IMG/VR virus record: IMGVR_UViG_3300005512_000301
Location: 1-25,235 of that record
DNA: 25,235 nt
From: a virus
Lineage: Duplodnaviria; Caudoviricetes
Direction: 5' to 3' (one strand)
Shown here: positions 5,980 through 24,983 of the stretch, in pieces
Position numbering within the stretch: position 1 is the first letter of the stretch
Layout of the letters: every line of letters begins with the position of its first letter
Notes under the pieces: model-generated
What the model was told of the DNA's origin: nothing
Databases searched by the model: none
The model's input: only the letters and a program-made list of their open reading frames with translations
Position numbers and translations under genes: made by a program

Positions 5980-6174
5980 TTAGTTAATTTCTTTTGCTGG
6001 TGTTTCTTCTGATACTTCTGTAAAGTTTTCTAGGATGTCATTAACAGGTACACCACTCTCTTTTGATGCTACCTCAATCAATGCTCCAGCCATACCTAGA
6101 ATCTCTAGAATAGTTCCTTCTCCATCAATGATTACCTCTGAATCATCGTTTGTCGTTACTGTTAGTTTTCCCAC
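5980..6174 (-). CDS. Small acidic hypothetical protein
   Basis: GTG start with GGAG RBS, tight packing between RNAP and SSB. Confidence 0.6.
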   Translation of the reverse strand: MGKLTVTTNDDSEVIIDGEGTILEILGMAGALIEVASKESGVPVNDILENFTEVSEETPAKEIN

Positions 6175-6183
6175 TTTCTCTCC

Positions 6184-8613
6184 TTAACTTATAATATAGT
6201 TTGCTTCTCTTACTTCTAACAACTCTAGGTCTCCATAAGGGGGTAGTTGTACTATACCTTCTGGGTCAAGTTGTTGTTTGAAGTTGTTTAATGGGTCTAG
6301 TGACATGACTGTTATAAACCCTTCTTTGTAACACTCTTGTATCTCATCACCCTCATTAGGATGTACAAGAAAACAATCATGTATTACTCCAATGTTAGTA
6401 CTCATATTATCTACACAAAACATAAGGATGGTAGAGTCAATGTTATGTACAAAGTTTGGTGCAATGCTGTTACGCTGTCTGCGCTTGTTTAGTTTAGGTG
6501 ACTCAATGTTTAAAGATAGTCTACCATAAGGTGTCTGTACTTGTGTAACAGATAAGTCTAAAGCTGTCTGCCTAACAGGGAAGTCATACAGTACGCCCTT
6601 CCATGTTGCGGGTTCTTCTTGTAACTTAGACACCTCTACTAGATAGTCCTGTCCTTTCTTAGCTCCCTTAATAGTATCATAGATAGCTCCCTCATTCAAC
6701 TCAGTAAGTATCTTATTAGCTACAAACTTATCTCCTGACCAGAACTCTTTGCCCTTTAAGGTAGCTTCATCCATCTTATCCCATAACTGATTACTCATTC
6801 CTCTCTTAGTAACAGAGTAAGGTACAGTCATTACATTACGCTTAACAATACTTCTTGTAATATTACCTGACATACTATCACCTACTGCCTTACCATTGAT
6901 AGAGTGTTGTTGTCCTTCTCTATCTTTGTAATCTACAATAGGGTTGTAAGTACCTGCCTTTAATGTATTGTTAACCTTATCTGCTACAATCTGATAGATA
7001 TCATTACGGCTATTGCCTATTACATTAACTGATAATGCACCATCCCTATCCCTAAGTAGCCCTGAGTACATCTGTATTCCAGAACAAGTAGCGTCTAATT
7101 GTATAGGTAAGTGTACAGGTTTATCATTAATGTAATCTCTGTATGCTAGACAACTAGCCATGAACTCAAACGGACTGTCTGTCCATACCCAATCAGCTAG
7201 AGTTCCTAATGGGTCAGCTGATATAGACAATAACATATCATGATTACTATCTACCCAGGCTAACCTCTCTTCAAACTCTTCCTTGTCAAGACCATAACAG
7301 TTAGCTATATGTATCTTTAACCAGAACTCCCCAATATCATCTAGTACCTTACCTTCTGAGAATTCCATCATAGCCTTTGTATGTGCCTGTCCTTGAGGAG
7401 ATAAGAAGTTTACCTTACTGTATACCCTACCCCTGTAATCTACCTCATAAGGGAAGTATAGTCCTGCGTACTTCTTCATCCTGTCTGCTACTGATAAGGT
7501 GAATAGTAAGTCAATACGTTTACTATCATCAGCGTTACTTCTGATATCTATGTCTTCCCTTTGTCTATTATAGTCAGACCATTCAGCATAGTTTTCTTTG
7601 TCTATCATGTCCTTAGAACTAAAGCCATCACGTGTGGGTAATTCTCCATACAAGTATGGTGCTAACTCAGGTGACTTAGGGTCAACCATATTGTTATCGA
7701 ATATATGTTTTATTACATCATATACTTCGGTATTTACTCTCCACGCTGTTTTTTGTAGCTTGTTTATAATAGGGTATACCTTTGTTAGTTTCTGTTGATG
7801 TAGGTAGTTCTCTACATCCCTAGACCTAGTAGTAAACAAACTACTCTTTCCTGTTAAGAAACCTCCACCAGTATTAGCAGTCCAATCCTTAGGTGGTACA
7901 ATCATTGGTAACTTATTGACTGCCGCTTCAGTTAATGGAGTAATATCTAAACTACGTATTACATCAGCCGCCTGGTTTGTAAGTCGTACAAGATATTGGC
8001 TCTTGTTATGTCCTACTATTTCCTTACGTACCTCAATAATATTAGCACCACTTAACTCTAGTAAGTTTATTAGTGTAGTACCTAACCTTAACATAAGTTT
8101 AGTATCGCTATCATACTTACCTAGATTATATAAATCTTTAACGTGTGTTTCTAATAGCTCTTTCTTCTTACGTTTGCTTGCTCTCCTAAACCTCTGGCCT
8201 AAGTAAGTATGTAGTTTAGGGTTATCTTCCTTTAACTTGTTGAATAAGAAAATATCCCTCATATTACGTACACAACTAATAGCCGTATGGGATAGGGTGT
8301 TACCACCTGCCGCACCGTTTATCACGTTGGTTAGTACAGTAAAAGCTACTACATCCATATCATCTGACATAAGAAGTAGTAAATCTTTAGGCTTACTATC
8401 ATGATTAGTAAACTCAGTATTTACGTACTCATTTAACTTAGTTACGTATGCTTCATACCCTAGCTTTACTAGTACCTGTCCATATATAGTATCAGATATA
8501 CTATTATTAGCTATTGCCTTTCTAATAGTACGTACTACTTTATGTACACCCTCTTCTTCTTTTAGTTTCTCTAGTTCTAACTGTTCTTTTACAGTACCTA
8601 GTATCCTATTCAT
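6184..8613 (-). CDS. Single-subunit DNA-dependent RNA polymerase (T7 gp1-like)
   Basis: DYRGRVY, motif A PIQLDATCSGIQ, motif B RSIVKRNVMTVPYS, APNFVHNIDS, motif C IHDCF; GGGAGAG RBS. Confidence 0.97.
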   Translation of the reverse strand: MNRILGTVKEQLELEKLKEEEGVHKVVRTIRKAIANNSISDTIYGQVLVKLGYEAYVTKLNEYVNTEFTNHDSKPKDLLLLMSDDMDVVAFTVLTNVINGAAGGNTLSHTAISCVRNMRDIFLFNKLKEDNPKLHTYLGQRFRRASKRKKKELLETHVKDLYNLGKYDSDTKLMLRLGTTLINLLELSGANIIEVRKEIVGHNKSQYLVRLTNQAADVIRSLDITPLTEAAVNKLPMIVPPKDWTANTGGGFLTGKSSLFTTRSRDVENYLHQQKLTKVYPIINKLQKTAWRVNTEVYDVIKHIFDNNMVDPKSPELAPYLYGELPTRDGFSSKDMIDKENYAEWSDYNRQREDIDIRSNADDSKRIDLLFTLSVADRMKKYAGLYFPYEVDYRGRVYSKVNFLSPQGQAHTKAMMEFSEGKVLDDIGEFWLKIHIANCYGLDKEEFEERLAWVDSNHDMLLSISADPLGTLADWVWTDSPFEFMASCLAYRDYINDKPVHLPIQLDATCSGIQMYSGLLRDRDGALSVNVIGNSRNDIYQIVADKVNNTLKAGTYNPIVDYKDREGQQHSINGKAVGDSMSGNITRSIVKRNVMTVPYSVTKRGMSNQLWDKMDEATLKGKEFWSGDKFVANKILTELNEGAIYDTIKGAKKGQDYLVEVSKLQEEPATWKGVLYDFPVRQTALDLSVTQVQTPYGRLSLNIESPKLNKRRQRNSIAPNFVHNIDSTILMFCVDNMSTNIGVIHDCFLVHPNEGDEIQECYKEGFITVMSLDPLNNFKQQLDPEGIVQLPPYGDLELLEVREANYIIS

Positions 8614-9552: not shown

Positions 9553-9565
9553 ATTTTTACCTTTA

Positions 9566-9838
9566 TTATAACCAACTATCTGGGTAGTCTTTATAGAATG
9601 TCGAGTCTTTTGCTTCTCTCCACCTATCTCTTTCCTTTAATAGTTTTAACCTTTTAACTACTTCTCTTGCCTGTTCTACGCTATCATACGTATCATAATG
9701 TTCATACTCTCTTAAGGGTACGTCCTCTTTACTATATGTATAGTATACACTTGCTGTATTATCGTAGTTAGTAAGTATTACAGCTTTAGTGTTTTTACGT
9801 AACTCCCTAAGTACTTCCTCACTTTCATAATTTTCCAT
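9566..9838 (-). CDS. Hypothetical protein
   Basis: Fills the gap between thyX and phoH; ATG at 9838 (MENYESEEV) avoids overlap, though the ORF is open from 9883. Confidence 0.55.
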   Translation of the reverse strand: MENYESEEVLRELRKNTKAVILTNYDNTASVYYTYSKEDVPLREYEHYDTYDSVEQAREVVKRLKLLKERDRWREAKDSTFYKDYPDSWL

Positions 9839-11989: not shown

Positions 11990-12220
11990 CTACCCTCGTT
12001 CCATTACTTCGTTTTCATCTAACCCTATCCATTCACATACAGCCTCAAACTCGAACCAAAACAGGTCATTTAGTTGTGTTTCGTCCATACCCTCTGGATA
12101 GATATCATCTAGTACACTTTCTAACTCATTCAATTCTGTATAAGTTAAATAAGAAGCGTTATCTTTAGCACCACTCCAAAAGTTAAAAGCTGTAAGGTTT
12201 TGTTCTGTTTGAATTTTCAT
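11990..12220 (-). CDS. First early gene: small very acidic protein, candidate DNA mimic/anti-defence
   Basis: 18 D/E vs 3 K/R in 76 aa; FWSGAKD...ET.LNDLFWFE motif recurrent in mobile elements; first ORF after the host promoters. Confidence 0.65.
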   Translation of the reverse strand: MKIQTEQNLTAFNFWSGAKDNASYLTYTELNELESVLDDIYPEGMDETQLNDLFWFEFEAVCEWIGLDENEVMERG

Positions 12221-12255: not shown

Positions 12256-12284
12256 AGTATAGTAAAGCTTTTAACTATTGTCAA
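12256..12284 (-). promoter_or_regulatory. Host sigma70 early promoter P2 (TTGACA-17-TATACT)
   Basis: -35 at 12284-12279, -10 at 12261-12256, AT-rich upstream. Confidence 0.85.
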
Positions 12285-12420: not shown

Positions 12421-12448
12421 ATTATACAGGGTTGGGCTAGTTTGTCAA
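12421..12448 (-). promoter_or_regulatory. Host sigma70 early promoter P1 (TTGACA-16-TATAAT) with AT-rich UP-like element
   Basis: Perfect hexamers at 12448-12443 and 12426-12421; A/T tract at 12453-12478. Confidence 0.85.
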
Positions 12449-12481
12449 TGACTATATTCAAATTAATTTAAATAATTAGCC

Positions 12482-12671
12482 CAAAGGGAATGACAAAGGG
12501 AATAAGTAATATATATATTGGTGCAATGTTTGCCATATTAAGGTGCAGCAAAGGGCAAAGGGAAACAAAGGGCAAATAAGAACTACTATCAAATGAGAAT
12601 CATTATCAATTAAGAACTATTATCAAATAGGAATCTAATGCAAATGAGAATCATTCTTATTAAGCAAAGGG
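12482..12671. repeat. Dispersed heptamer CAAAGGG x6
   Basis: Exact copies at 12482, 12494, 12549, 12556, 12566 and 12665. Confidence 0.85.
12573..12659. promoter_or_regulatory. Five tandem 17-bp units resembling Fur boxes
   Basis: Units at 12573, 12590, 12607, 12624 and 12641; TGAGAATCATTATCA (12594-12608) matches the 7-1-7 Fur consensus TGATAATnATTATCA at 13/14 specified positions. Confidence 0.7.
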
Positions 12672-12675
12672 ATAA

Positions 12676-12826
12676 GTTGGCACGATTCTTGCTAAGGGCT
12701 TGGCTAAGTAGTACACTAAGTACAATTACTAGGGGCTAGGGTTGGCACACTTCTTGCTAAGGGCTAGAGTTGGCATGATTCTTGCTAGGGCTGGGACTGA
12801 GGCGGGAAGTTGGCATGGTTCTTGCG
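12676..12826 (+). promoter_or_regulatory. Four sigma54 (RpoN) -24/-12 consensus sites in direct repeat
   Basis: TGGCACGATTCTTGCT (12678), TGGCACACTTCTTGCT (12743), TGGCATGATTCTTGCT (12771), TGGCATGGTTCTTGCG (12811); all GG-N10-GC. Confidence 0.78.
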
Positions 12827-12882
12827 GGGGGGCATGGGGGAATTACGTAGCGCGTATAAAGAGAGACACCTCAAAGATTTTT
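12826..12882 (-). other. Predicted start of the direct terminal repeat / left genome end (~12864-12866)
   Basis: Minus strand AAAAATCT..GAG.G..TCTC...TTCCCCCAT (TCTC starts 22-24 nt before TTCCCCCAT) resembles the T7 terminal-repeat start (TCTCACAG...TTCCCCCATAGG, recalled); lies between terL and the early promoters. Confidence 0.6.
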
Positions 12883-13030
12883 GTGTCATTTTTTGAGCCC
12901 TATACTAAGCACCTCCCTAAGAGGGCAGTACACTAGATACTATTTCGGGGGCATTAAGGGAGTATTAGTAATAAGTATACGTAGTAGTATTAATTACTAA
13001 TGAAGTCTTAATAATAGTAGTAGTAATAAT

Positions 13031-13081
13031 AGTAATACGTAAGTATTACTGAACGGATACCTTCGCTATGCTCAGGTATCC
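13031..13081. repeat. Two adjacent perfect 8-bp palindromic stems
   Basis: AGTAATAC-GTAA-GTATTACT (13031-13050) and GGATACCT-N11-AGGTATCC (13055-13081). Confidence 0.8.
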
Positions 13082-13140
13082 TATACTATTACTTATACTA
13101 TACTATAGTATATATAGACGTTTCCCCCAGGAATCTTATT

Positions 13141-13162
13141 CCTATAGTAGTTACTCCTATCA
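13141..13162 (-). promoter_or_regulatory. Candidate phage-RNAP promoter (phiOR-like) TGATAGGAGTAACTACTATA|GG
   Basis: Ends in ACTATA|GG like T7/SP6 promoters, sits right after terL pointing at the terminal repeat; paralogous motif at 8731-8752. Confidence 0.5.
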
Positions 13163-13183
13163 ATTCCCTTTGTATTCATATAG

Positions 13184-14860
13184 TTAGTAGTTATTTATAT
13201 AATTTACTTTAGGTGTATTATAACTACCATATATCTTTTCATTTAAGAACTGTTCCATCCTACTCTTATTAAGCTCATCTATAGTTCTTTCTGTATCAAC
13301 CATAACCATATCCTTAACATATTGACAGGCAATAGCCAAAGCATCTAATCTATCATCATGTGTTAAGGATTGTCTATCTCTAGTCAAGTGTGTAAACTGA
13401 TGTATTAAACTATATACTAAGTTAGTAGGTTCTTGTTGTACCATCTCAGAGTCTTTCTGTATTACATCATAGTTAATAACTAGTTTGTGGTTAGATACTA
13501 AAGGTTCTATGTTTTCTATAATACGTAACTCTTTCTGTCCTTTAACCTTAAAGTCTTCTTCTATAGTACAAGGATATACAGTAGCTATTACTTTACTAAG
13601 TAAGTTATAGAACATACCTCCACCCCAGTTAGCTTCAGGTACAATAGTATTAACTTTATACTCCTTAGCTTTATTAGCAAAGAACATTAGAGCTTCATCT
13701 GAGAAGCCTAAGCGTGTACCACCCACATCTAAGATATATACATACCCATTAAGGACTCCTAGGATTGCGTATGTGGCTTCATCTGTACCTTTACCTGATG
13801 GGTCTATAGACATCATCTTAAAGTCGTAAGGAGCGTACTCTGAGTGCGTTCTAAGAGGCTTATGATAATAGTCACCTGTAAATCCATAGTTAGGTAATTC
13901 TTTAATTACATTATCAGATGAACCAGAGTAAGTAATAGATAGTGGTGCTTCTTCTTTATCAAGAGGATGTACAATTAAATCCTTAAGCTTAAGAGGGAAT
14001 CTCTCAGCATCAGATAATGTAGTATCTAGGTTGTACTGTAACTTGAAGTTAGCAGCTCCCATAAAGCCCCTACGTTCTATTAATACTTCATCTGGGAAAC
14101 GTACCTTATCTGTAGCATCTCCAGGATTACCTTGTTCAAGAATCCAAGGGTCTAGCTTACCATTATACAGCTCAGGCTTCTCAGGTACTTGAGCAGGTAG
14201 TATAGTAGTAGGGTAGGTAAGTTTATTATATATAGTCTCCATAGACTGAGGAGTACCTAGCATTAGTACGCTACTTGGTAAATCAGGTATTAGTAGTGCT
14301 TCAAACTCAGATACCTGTTGTACTAGCTTCTCTCTCATTAATTCAGTAGCTGAGTTAGAAGGTACTTCAACATCATCCCCTAAGATTAATGTAGCACGTC
14401 TACCTGTAATCTGTCCTGTAATACCTACAGCAGCTACAGAAGGAGCAATAGAAGGTTTAGCACCTTGTACATCAAACGCTAGTACACTATCACGATGTTC
14501 ACTAGAAGGTCTAAGGTGATGTAGTAAAGGTACTTCTTCAAACAGTCTACGTACAAAGGTAGCTATCTCAATAGCCTTAACACCAGATGCAGAGATAACT
14601 AATATCTTTTCATCTATATTACGTAATAATCTCCATGTAGTATAGATAGCAGATATCCAAGACTTACCAGTACCACGTGCAGCCTCTAAGATAAGTCTGT
14701 CTGGGTTATCCCCAATAATATCAGCTATCCTATTCTGTAGAGGTGTAGGGCTTGGTAAGTTAATATTAGTATATACATACTCAAGGTACTTTGGAAAGCT
14801 ATTGATTATCTCTGTTAGTTCTTGTCTGTTTAAATTGTTTATTGTTGTTTGTTTTGGCAT
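13184..14860 (-). CDS. terL: Terminase large subunit (T7 gp19-like)
   Basis: Walker A EAARGTGKSWI, GITGQITGRRA.LILGDDVE, LGTPQ, nuclease DPSGKGTDE and HDDRLDALA; AAGGAG RBS. Confidence 0.96.
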   Translation of the reverse strand: MPKQTTINNLNRQELTEIINSFPKYLEYVYTNINLPSPTPLQNRIADIIGDNPDRLILEAARGTGKSWISAIYTTWRLLRNIDEKILVISASGVKAIEIATFVRRLFEEVPLLHHLRPSSEHRDSVLAFDVQGAKPSIAPSVAAVGITGQITGRRATLILGDDVEVPSNSATELMREKLVQQVSEFEALLIPDLPSSVLMLGTPQSMETIYNKLTYPTTILPAQVPEKPELYNGKLDPWILEQGNPGDATDKVRFPDEVLIERRGFMGAANFKLQYNLDTTLSDAERFPLKLKDLIVHPLDKEEAPLSITYSGSSDNVIKELPNYGFTGDYYHKPLRTHSEYAPYDFKMMSIDPSGKGTDEATYAILGVLNGYVYILDVGGTRLGFSDEALMFFANKAKEYKVNTIVPEANWGGGMFYNLLSKVIATVYPCTIEEDFKVKGQKELRIIENIEPLVSNHKLVINYDVIQKDSEMVQQEPTNLVYSLIHQFTHLTRDRQSLTHDDRLDALAIACQYVKDMVMVDTERTIDELNKSRMEQFLNEKIYGSYNTPKVNYINNY

Positions 14861-23598: not shown

Positions 23599-24060
23599 CT
23601 ACTCTCCTGTGATTGTAATATAATTAATTGCATCTATATTCCTCGACATAAGTTGTTCATAAGAAGAAGTCATTTCTTTTTCCGCTCCTTCTATTGTTGT
23701 TTGTTTAGTAGTAAAGCTCATAGCTACATAAGTATCTTCAAAAGCAACTACAGCTTGTTTTCTATCTTTACTACCAGGCACTACTTTAAAACCATCTACT
23801 ATAAAAACAGAATCTCCTTGAGAGAATTTTGCTTTTCCATGTATAGTTACTGTGGTAGGAACTTCTATTATTGTACCTACAGCAACTGCGCCTTTTGGTA
23901 TAAAAACAGTTCTGGTATAGATACCTCCATGTAAAGTATGCCACGTAGTAATATCTAATTGGGTTTCTTTTTTTAATACTGCTTCAAGATTATTTATTTT
24001 TTCAAGGCCTTCTTTTGAAGAAGGTACTATTTGTGTTTGTCTTAGTATTACCTTGCTCAT
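23599..24060 (-). CDS. Cupin-fold phage protein
   Basis: HTLHGGIYTRTVFIPKG...VG..I..PT ... G...RKQAVVAFEDT pattern of podophage cupin-like proteins found beside ejection genes. Confidence 0.6.
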   Translation of the reverse strand: MSKVILRQTQIVPSSKEGLEKINNLEAVLKKETQLDITTWHTLHGGIYTRTVFIPKGAVAVGTIIEVPTTVTIHGKAKFSQGDSVFIVDGFKVVPGSKDRKQAVVAFEDTYVAMSFTTKQTTIEGAEKEMTSSYEQLMSRNIDAINYITITGE

Positions 24061-24512
24061 GATAATACCTTAGTAAATAAAGTATTGGTAGCAGTAAAGC
24101 CAAATATTCTTGCAGCTTTTTCTAATCTACTTTCTTTGGGTGCAGTCATAATAAAGGCTTTTATTCCAGCTTTCCTAGAAACATCTTCTAAAGTATTAAG
24201 TAACCGTTTAGTTGTATTTGTATTTCTATATTCCTGTAATACAAAAATAGCAGATGTAGACACAGACTTTACTAGGTAATGTGGCAAAATACTAAAACTT
24301 GCCATTATAAAACCTACTAGTTTATCTTCTTCATAAGCCGCAATTACTTTAAACATTCCAGTATCTTCTAACTCTTGATATACATACTCTTGTACGTTAG
24401 CTTTAGGAAGTACTTTATTATTAGACTCATTTATGTATGCAGATACAACATTATCCCAGTTACTACTAGAAAATAATTCCTTTACTGTAACAAGTTTAAT
24501 TTTAATTTCCAT
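24057..24512 (-). CDS. GNAT family acetyltransferase (paralog 2)
   Basis: KLVGF, PHY, IFVLQEYRN (motif A, degenerate Gly loop), LEDVSRKAG. Confidence 0.75.
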   Translation of the reverse strand: MEIKIKLVTVKELFSSSNWDNVVSAYINESNNKVLPKANVQEYVYQELEDTGMFKVIAAYEEDKLVGFIMASFSILPHYLVKSVSTSAIFVLQEYRNTNTTKRLLNTLEDVSRKAGIKAFIMTAPKESRLEKAARIFGFTATNTLFTKVLS

Positions 24513-24530
24513 ACCCTCTCCTTTAATTCT

Positions 24531-24983
24531 TTACTTCAATACCCTAATAAATTGTACGTTAGCTTTCTTATATCCGAACAGTCTAGCTGCTTTTTCTAGT
24601 CTACCACCAGCTGGGGCAGTAATATAAAAGAACTCAGCTCCTGCTTGTTTAGCATATTCTTCAGCTGTACGTATTAGTTTAAGTCCTGTATTCCCTTTGC
24701 GGTAATTATCATCAACATATAAAGATTCTGTATCTGCTGCCAGTACATCATAGTGTAAATAGTAACCTATTGTAGTAACAGTAAATCCTATTAAGATAGC
24801 ATCATCAGAATAAGCACCTACTATAATAAGTTCATTATTATTTTCTATCTCTTTATATTTTTCATATTTTGGGTTAACATCTTTAAGATATTCAAGTGAA
24901 GATTCTTTTTCATAATCTAAACATAATCTGACAAACCCTGGAGTATTCCAAAGTTCATCAAGACTAATTTTTCTAAAATACAT
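24531..24983 (-). CDS. GNAT family acetyltransferase (paralog 1)
   Basis: LIGF, LHY, LYVDDNYRKGNTGLKLI..AEEYAKQAGA (intact acetyl-CoA motif A). Confidence 0.85.
   Translation of the reverse strand: MYFRKISLDELWNTPGFVRLCLDYEKESSLEYLKDVNPKYEKYKEIENNNELIIVGAYSDDAILIGFTVTTIGYYLHYDVLAADTESLYVDDNYRKGNTGLKLIRTAEEYAKQAGAEFFYITAPAGGRLEKAARLFGYKKANVQFIRVLK

Follow-up and report, generated by a model that had tools for sequence, protein, structure and literature searches.

Introduction

Binding sites for host proteins are already known from the termini of tailed phages. In T5, the injection-stop region (Repeat Region 3) contains DnaA boxes according to an in silico model presented in the main text of a preprint (10.1101/866236), where 'Fur' does not occur as a whole word, although the supplements could name the repeats. 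Like the array described here, that region combines non-coding terminal-repeat DNA, clustered host-protein sites and a proposed action by binding during injection, yet it lies ~9.5 kb in and is a proposed stop, whereas our array lies 42–290 bp from a T7-like end. For phiCbK-like and other Alphaproteobacteria phages, terminal repeats likewise contain clusters of sites for the host regulator CtrA; according to PMC9437464, these phages are lytic, binding has been shown, and one factor acts in promoter regions to regulate phage genes. The clade studied here differs in having several interchangeable factors, at sites that are distant from promoters and free in orientation.

Phage lambda carries IHF sites at cos. 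As at lambda cos and upstream of the Mu early promoter (PMC8501957), a host DNA-binding protein would be recruited at our locus without phage synthesis, but IHF is a single bending protein that requires an exact position and is not swappable. The T7 left end, with its CCTAAAG repeats, leftward A0 and A1-A3, offers the homologous landmark, with heptamers, an outward-facing polymerase site and then sigma-70 early promoters; it differs in that its positions 1–1400 are free of matches to Fur, sigma-54, DnaA and LexA sites. Bacterial sigma-54 promoters and Fur operators are the source of the consensus shared by the sites reported below. Compared with the former, our sigma-54 sites stand in tandem at 28–65 bp with no gene ahead and no significant enhancer; compared with the latter, our Fur boxes overlap no promoter.

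No description of sigma-54 or Fur arrays at phage termini was found in a literature search from which subscription journals were mostly absent, so that this absence is weak evidence. In the passages searched, PMC6969025 and PMC9023278 held nothing pertinent, and the paper on Roseobacter phage CRP-143 (PMC11092137) did not use 'terminal repeat', 'promoter' or 'binding site'. While host sites in phage termini are established, a lattice of sites for several interchangeable factors seems to be undescribed for the left end of a T7-like genome.

Results

Genome context of the array

The window (the whole stretch of 25,235 nucleotides analysed, from IMG/VR record IMGVR_UViG_3300005512_000301) comes from the genome of a T7-like phage and has its genes on the minus strand. 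A single-subunit RNA polymerase (6184–8613, minus strand; phrog_414, E 7e-169), a T7-type terminase and a unidirectional gene order identify it as a member of the Autographiviridae; PhoH and ThyX were also matched in PHROGs. Among cultured phages, the best match is to Roseobacter phage CRP-143 (Autographiviridae), with a terminase identity of 73.8% and a similar gene order, in which the primase-helicase and polymerase encoded by the window phage follow the same order. The class I RNR proposed in the first-pass annotation was borne out, as the fragment at 1–261 is 47% identical to CRP-143 NrdA over 75 amino acids. GC content is 35% for the window and 31% for the promoter stretch. A host search among genome contigs returned a single 71% match, in a Proteobacteria bin, and the sequencing runs that matched were two DNA contig runs, at small shares, and none of RNA; the DNA contigs do not span the array. 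Elsewhere in the window, three adjacent open reading frames (ORFs) of ~150 amino acids (23599–24983, minus strand) are positioned ahead of the internal-virion genes, and two of the three are alike and acetyltransferase-like by eye.

The array is located in the 960 bp that separate the terminase stop from the first early ORF (12220). This ORF, for which an atlas search yielded no function, is small and strongly acidic and by composition only is a candidate DNA mimic. In the terminase-side spacer, a GC-richer inverted repeat at 13050–13090, found in the same place in an 87% relative (L136), is possibly a late terminator or a packaging element. The features are as follows (window coordinates).

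11990..12220, minus strand: first early ORF, 76 amino acids, acidic (phrog_5149; PHROGs)
12256..12284, minus strand: second sigma-70-type promoter match (11/12), ahead of the first early ORF
12421..12448, minus strand: first sigma-70-type promoter match (12/12), with its −35 box at +419 from the predicted end
12482..12790, plus strand: scattered CAAAGGG / CTAAGGG heptamers
12519..12547, plus strand: two GGTGCA hexamers, earlier called NtrC-like, at chance level as NtrC sites
12573..12659, no strand assigned: tandem repeat of 17-bp period, five units (repeat search and Fur-box scoring), with Fur-type boxes that are good at 12594, 12611 and 12645, weak at 12577 and degenerate at 12628
12678..12692, plus strand: sigma-54 site 4 (13/13)
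12743..12757, plus strand: sigma-54 site 3 (12/13), separated from site 2 by 28 bp, which is the most frequent spacing class among viral arrays
12771..12785, plus strand: sigma-54 site 2 (12/13)
12811..12825, plus strand: sigma-54 −24/−12 site 1 (11/13), +42 to +56 from the predicted end, outward-facing
12826..12886, minus strand: terminal landmark, consisting of an A-run, GAGGTG followed by TCTCTC, and a C-run from 12840, by homology to defined termini
12887..13183, no strand assigned: non-coding DNA from the terminase stop to the landmark, on the predicted right-end side, used as internal control
13184..14860, minus strand: T7-like terminase large subunit (phrog_38, E 6e-101)

A predicted left genome end

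The minus strand from 12886 to 12826 resembles the start of the T7 terminal repeat plus the DNA immediately preceding it. In T7, SP6, phiKMV and Syn5, using records that carry both repeats, the C-run starts 25–29 nt inside the left end, an arrangement that the end motif of the window reproduces: its C-run from 12840 puts the predicted end at 12864–12868, and TCTC begins at 12866. The terminase cut and left genome end are thus predicted at ~12866, where the first-pass annotation had placed the end, with backing from homology to these four termini rather than from read mapping. The landmark was present in 24 of 29 related loci (the match in L141 being weak), while blastn of the landmark against cultured phages gave chance matches only, in Enterococcus primase genes.

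The T7 junction pause motif, searched in its exact form, is absent from the window, so that the inner boundary of the terminal repeat is unmarked. Reference terminal repeats measure 160 (T7), 174, 237 and 414 bp, and that of ProddE is predicted at 271 bp; a repeat of any of these lengths would place at least three sigma-54 sites (+42 to +124) at both genome ends. Among other termini, Syn5 (L255) has two ATTGAGAAT half-sites at ~45–80, directly after the terminal C-run, and Lau218 (L257) has one Fur-type box (13/14) at 2715, inside its predicted left end.

Host-factor-type sites in the window

The four sigma-54 sites named earlier were all recovered as strict TGGCA-N6-TTGC matches at 12678, 12743, 12771 and 12811, all on the plus strand, with no fifth copy on either strand of the 25,235 bp. 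Each has GG/GC at −24/−12, the correct spacing and consensus flanks, as expected of a binding site, the scores being taken against a 13-position −24/−12 consensus. When the 500 bp inside the landmark were dinucleotide-shuffled 2,000 times, the mean number of such sites was 0.006, and four were reached in none (0/2000). All four are directed outward, to the predicted end of the DNA, and run antisense to the genes of the phage. They do not look like functional sigma-54 promoters, since there is no gene ahead, the NtrC match is insignificant, the spacing goes down to 28 bp and the orientation flips (among relatives, see below). Blastn of the sigma-54 block yielded matches only to one group of Vibrio phages (286 records, E ~2) and to a single Pseudomonas phage.

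The tandem repeat had been read as five Fur-box-like units. Their scores are 11, 14, 12, 7 and 13 of 14 against a 7-1-7 box; three of the five are therefore good inverted repeats (at least 12/14), one is weak and one has no Fur match. The shuffle mean for units scoring at least 12/14 was 0.013, and three were reached in 0/2000. The arrangement is not that of a Fur operator, as neither a −35 nor a −10 box is overlapped and the array is located 145 bp upstream of the −35 box.

Two NtrC-like sites had also been proposed, and these were lost: the best palindrome scores 10/14, a value equalled in 225 of 2,000 shuffles, and GGTGCA occurring twice was by itself seen in 38 of 2,000, so that the two full palindromic sites above chance that make an NtrC enhancer are missing. 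The nitrogen-sensing arm of the earlier proposal is thereby left without its NtrC sites. The stretch 12519–12533 is also a loose sigma-54-like match (9/13). The CAAAGGG repeats, on the other hand, were found six times, and the broader heptamer class has eight copies against 0.6 expected (0/2000 shuffles). Heptamers are retained across the clade, including where host sites are absent, and are likely counterparts of the short terminal repeats of T7 (CCTAAAG). The strong sigma-70 promoter reported before holds as a consensus match (12/12 at 12421..12448, minus strand); it and the second promoter are the best of 13 matches, where 11.5 were expected in all.

Position is conserved and content varies among related loci

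From a terminase alignment, 53 of the 120 listed homologues led to 37 viral plus 80 metagenome loci being fetched. Those with at least 50% identity and a match reaching terminase residue 500 or beyond were kept and duplicates removed, leaving 29 loci including the window and CRP-143, of which the 24 with a landmark were analysed (it was missing in five). The loci are not independent, some being near-identical (L137 and L144), and the counts given here ignore kinship.

Sites for Fur, sigma-54 or DnaA were found inside the landmark in 15 of the 24 loci, window included. Over 9,488 bp inside the landmark there were 42 Fur boxes (14 of 24 loci), 8 sigma-54 sites (3 of 24) and 10 DnaA boxes (4 of 24; three loci with three each and one with a single box), as compared with 0.4, 0 and 0.2, respectively, in shuffled inside sequence. 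None of these 60 sites had a counterpart outside the landmark, where 7,041 bp of non-coding DNA held 0 Fur, 0 sigma-54 and 0 DnaA matches. The earlier annotation would have been refuted by relatives that retain repeats but lose the consensus-critical bases; the related loci instead carry sites of consensus quality at the landmark. Heptamers followed the same side, with 61 inside (16 of 24 loci) and 5 outside (shuffles, 6.2), and LexA boxes numbered 0 among the 24 loci. All three host-site types were absent from nine of the 24 loci, two of which end at 98 and 240 bp.

In 12 of the 15 site-bearing loci, the first host site begins between +42 and +59, while the gap that separates the last host site and the first −35 box ranges over 46–196 bp across the five loci where a promoter was matched, with no overlap. 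The factors and their orientation differ from locus to locus. The 87% relative L136 carries three inward-facing sigma-54 sites and lacks a Fur box over the 207 bp scanned, and L175 has one sigma-54 site, also inward-facing, so that four outward sites in the window stand against four inward ones in these two loci. CRP-143 carries three Fur boxes, with no others in 42.6 kb, and no sigma-54 site, and DnaA boxes are added in L137, L144 and L220. The exact T7 junction pause motif occurs in two of the 24 loci (L180 and L185), 270–350 bp inside the landmark, and both of these are devoid of Fur, sigma-54 and DnaA sites. Among more distant T7-like loci (<50% terminase identity), any match at all was seen in 6 of 52 and an array in none. 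The array is real, non-random and end-anchored, with conserved position and variable content.

An AT-rich motif, TATTTAACATAAT (window plus orientation), is common to L136, L137, L144 and L220 at 110–160 bp inside the landmark; located among the host sites, it is possibly the site of a further host factor.

Sigma-54 arrays in other viruses, T5 and ICP1

A scan of 10 of 64 parts for the tandem sigma-54 pattern matched 129 viral loci, from which ~770 viral stretches with tandem sites are estimated; these arrays are not independent of one another. Among 213 distinct neighbouring pairs in the same orientation, a distance below 24 bp was never seen, even though 20–23 bp was permitted by the search pattern, and 69 were at 26–28 bp. 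Convergent pairs clustered at 21–22 bp (35 of 58) and divergent ones at 25 bp (24 of 43). Such spacings are what would be expected under simultaneous occupancy by a protein with a fixed footprint. A helical phasing of the spacings was considered from peaks at 26–28, 36–37 and 48 bp and is not claimed, as the fit was weak (0.37) for the 85 spacings of at least 30 bp, which did not single out 10.5 bp.

For 71 distinct loci, taken from 80 with long flanks, terminase was the largest nearby ORF on one side in 28 by hand count (116 ORFs scanned), and these terminases belong mostly to one family of ~417 amino acids; 21 of the 71 arrays fall within a mechanical ORF of at least 100 amino acids. In a phage group unrelated to the window (L015, L024, L029, L036, L048, L058 and others), up to nine sigma-54 sites alternate in orientation in 22/25-bp steps upstream of a terminase of ~417–429 amino acids.

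Through its Fur repeat, the window array matched the ends of ICP1 and the 8.6–9.6 kb region of T5-like phages by blastn, with weak E-values. In T5 (L258, NC_005859), Fur-type boxes at 9554, 9658 and 9693 (12, 14 and 13 of 14), plus more partial copies (9554–9707), lie within the annotated injection-stop signal; outside it, boxes are located at 233–247 (14/14, in dmp) and 6100–6114. The ICP1 matches (MN419153 and other records) are weak Fur-repeat matches at 713–796, in an unannotated terminal region. No Fur, sigma-54, DnaA or LexA match was found in T7 1–1400, the whole of SP6 or the whole of phiKMV.

Discussion

The reading that we tentatively prefer is a coat of host proteins that would secure and protect the first-entering end until it is engaged by host RNA polymerase. 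The 250 bp inside the predicted end contain three to four Fur-type boxes in addition to the four sigma-54 sites; upon DNA entry, host sigma-54 and Fur would cover these predicted sites and keep the naked leader in place and protected until host RNA polymerase is loaded at the sigma-70 promoter ~420 bp in. Before any phage protein exists, the bound proteins would act as an anti-backsliding pawl and as a steric shield. For this account we infer the position of the end, binding by the host proteins, selection on occupancy rather than on signalling, and the pawl and shield action.

Occupancy, rather than promoter or operator function, is probably what matters at these sites, since the factors swap, orientation is free, spacing is near-minimal, the promoter is distant and sidedness is strict, all of which favours occupancy at a DNA end. 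A first site that is fixed relative to the end, with a promoter gap that varies, supports a coat, as do the steric signature of the sigma-54 pairs (0/213 below 24 bp), the 28 of 71 arrays beside terminase and the Fur-type boxes in the T5 injection-stop region. The protein-free docking module suggested by the first-pass annotation is therefore retained in part: relatives keep consensus-quality sites at the landmark, whereas the NtrC sites drop out. Among the functions proposed for it, a ratchet or end-cap fits best, though a simple block to RecBCD is made doubtful by the ability of this enzyme to push through and evict tandem arrays of tight binders (10.1101/142224). The first 40 bp, left free for RecBCD loading, also argue against a nuclease shield. 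Moreover, T7-like phages do not generally need a coat, as it is absent from nine of 24 relatives, the left 1.4 kb of T7, SP6 and phiKMV. The start at ~+47 may merely be the first free position after a conserved packaging motif, and the host may lack RpoN or Fur of the scored type. The T7 leader is moved in by virion proteins, in which case a pawl would be redundant.

A gate set by the state of the host, in which occupancy by Fur (iron), DnaA or sigma-54 tunes entry or early transcription and the lytic programme is thereby timed to host physiology, as has been proposed for CtrA sites, is an unlikely alternative for which several observations nonetheless speak. Fur boxes are the most frequent type of site, a class I RNR, which is an iron enzyme, is encoded by the phage, and Fur is able to spread along DNA from tandem boxes. 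The CtrA sites in the terminal repeats of Alphaproteobacteria phages are bound and regulate phage genes (PMC9437464). Promoter overlap is nevertheless absent (145 bp upstream in the window and 46–196 bp across the five loci), the NtrC match is insignificant, and the window sigma-54 sites face the DNA end with no gene ahead of them. The iron and nitrogen sensor of the earlier annotation is weakened in the same way, as Fur, sigma-54 and DnaA replace one another between close relatives, sigma-54 sites flip, and all lie well away from the −35 box. Still less likely is a scaffold for packaging or replication, whereby host proteins among the junction heptamers would aid the terminase cut, repeat duplication or origin opening, in the manner of IHF at lambda cos. 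The sites do adjoin the predicted cut and are interleaved with conserved heptamers, three relatives have DnaA boxes, and viral sigma-54 arrays often neighbour terminase (28/71). T7 packaging begins from a polymerase pause at the concatemer junction (PMC3276506), and bound proteins might replace the pause motif, which is present only in two of 24 loci, both without host sites; this split (2/9 vs 0/15) is however too small, and seven loci have neither. Proteins of unrelated structure, bound in either orientation, are moreover unlikely to share one architectural role, and the phage carries its own primase-helicase and polymerase.

That replicated genomes titrate Fur and sigma-54, so as to derepress iron uptake and free core polymerase, is improbable. 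Multicopy Fur boxes titrate Fur (FURTA), and high-quality tandem sites at near-minimal spacing and in any orientation would suit such a sponge; the host chromosome may also stay expressible, CRP-143 being without T7-type endo- and exonuclease genes (PMC11092137). A sponge, however, needs no fixed place, yet the adjacent non-coding DNA outside the end, which is equally replicated, has 0 sites in 7,041 bp as against 60 in 9,488 bp inside, and this weakens the decoy option of the first-pass annotation. There are no further sites elsewhere in the window or CRP-143, each genome has just 1–10, and the effects of titrating DnaA, Fur and sigma-54 are unrelated to each other. We give an equally low standing to counter-silencing, in which bound host proteins would break H-NS-type filaments on the AT-rich leader and let the first promoter fire. 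It suits the low GC (window and promoter stretch alike) and, being agnostic as to the factor, matches the swaps in related loci. Phages are known to counter H-NS, Mu doing so via host IHF bound upstream of its early promoter (PMC8501957), and counter-silencing can be achieved by inserting an operator that an unrelated repressor recognises, while the iron-dependent IdeR counter-silences naturally (PMC7002338). The effective range given there, ~25–35 bp near the nucleation site or start site, is at odds with sites that follow the DNA end and lie upstream of the −35 box at distances of 46–196 bp. Neutral repeats, or repeats for a phage protein, that resemble host sites by chance are very improbable: phage ends are repeat-rich with fast turnover, and the arrays of the window and its 87% relative do differ, but 0/2000 shuffles match, three unrelated host consensuses recur at one landmark, and phage groups that are not related to each other share the sigma-54 motif, with a sharp lower limit to its spacing.

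Beyond the preferred host-protein coat at this one end, we find it rather doubtful, though worth stating, that unrelated tailed phages independently evolved protein-free 'end coats', as interchangeable lattices of tight Fur, sigma-54 and DnaA sites that serve by their occupancy as pawl, brake or shield during DNA entry, with the T5 injection stop as an instance in which Fur was overlooked. The mechanism of that stop has been a question for more than 50 years, and the Fur-type boxes of T5 allow a test in E. coli; the coat itself is directly testable in the cultured relative CRP-143. There is only a partial understanding of how phage DNA, while still naked, is kept in place, protected and drawn into the cell in the first seconds, before phage proteins are made. 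If the coat is real, a swappable cis-element would represent a new phage use of host proteins, one invisible to gene-based annotation, and the type of site may help to predict the host of a phage.
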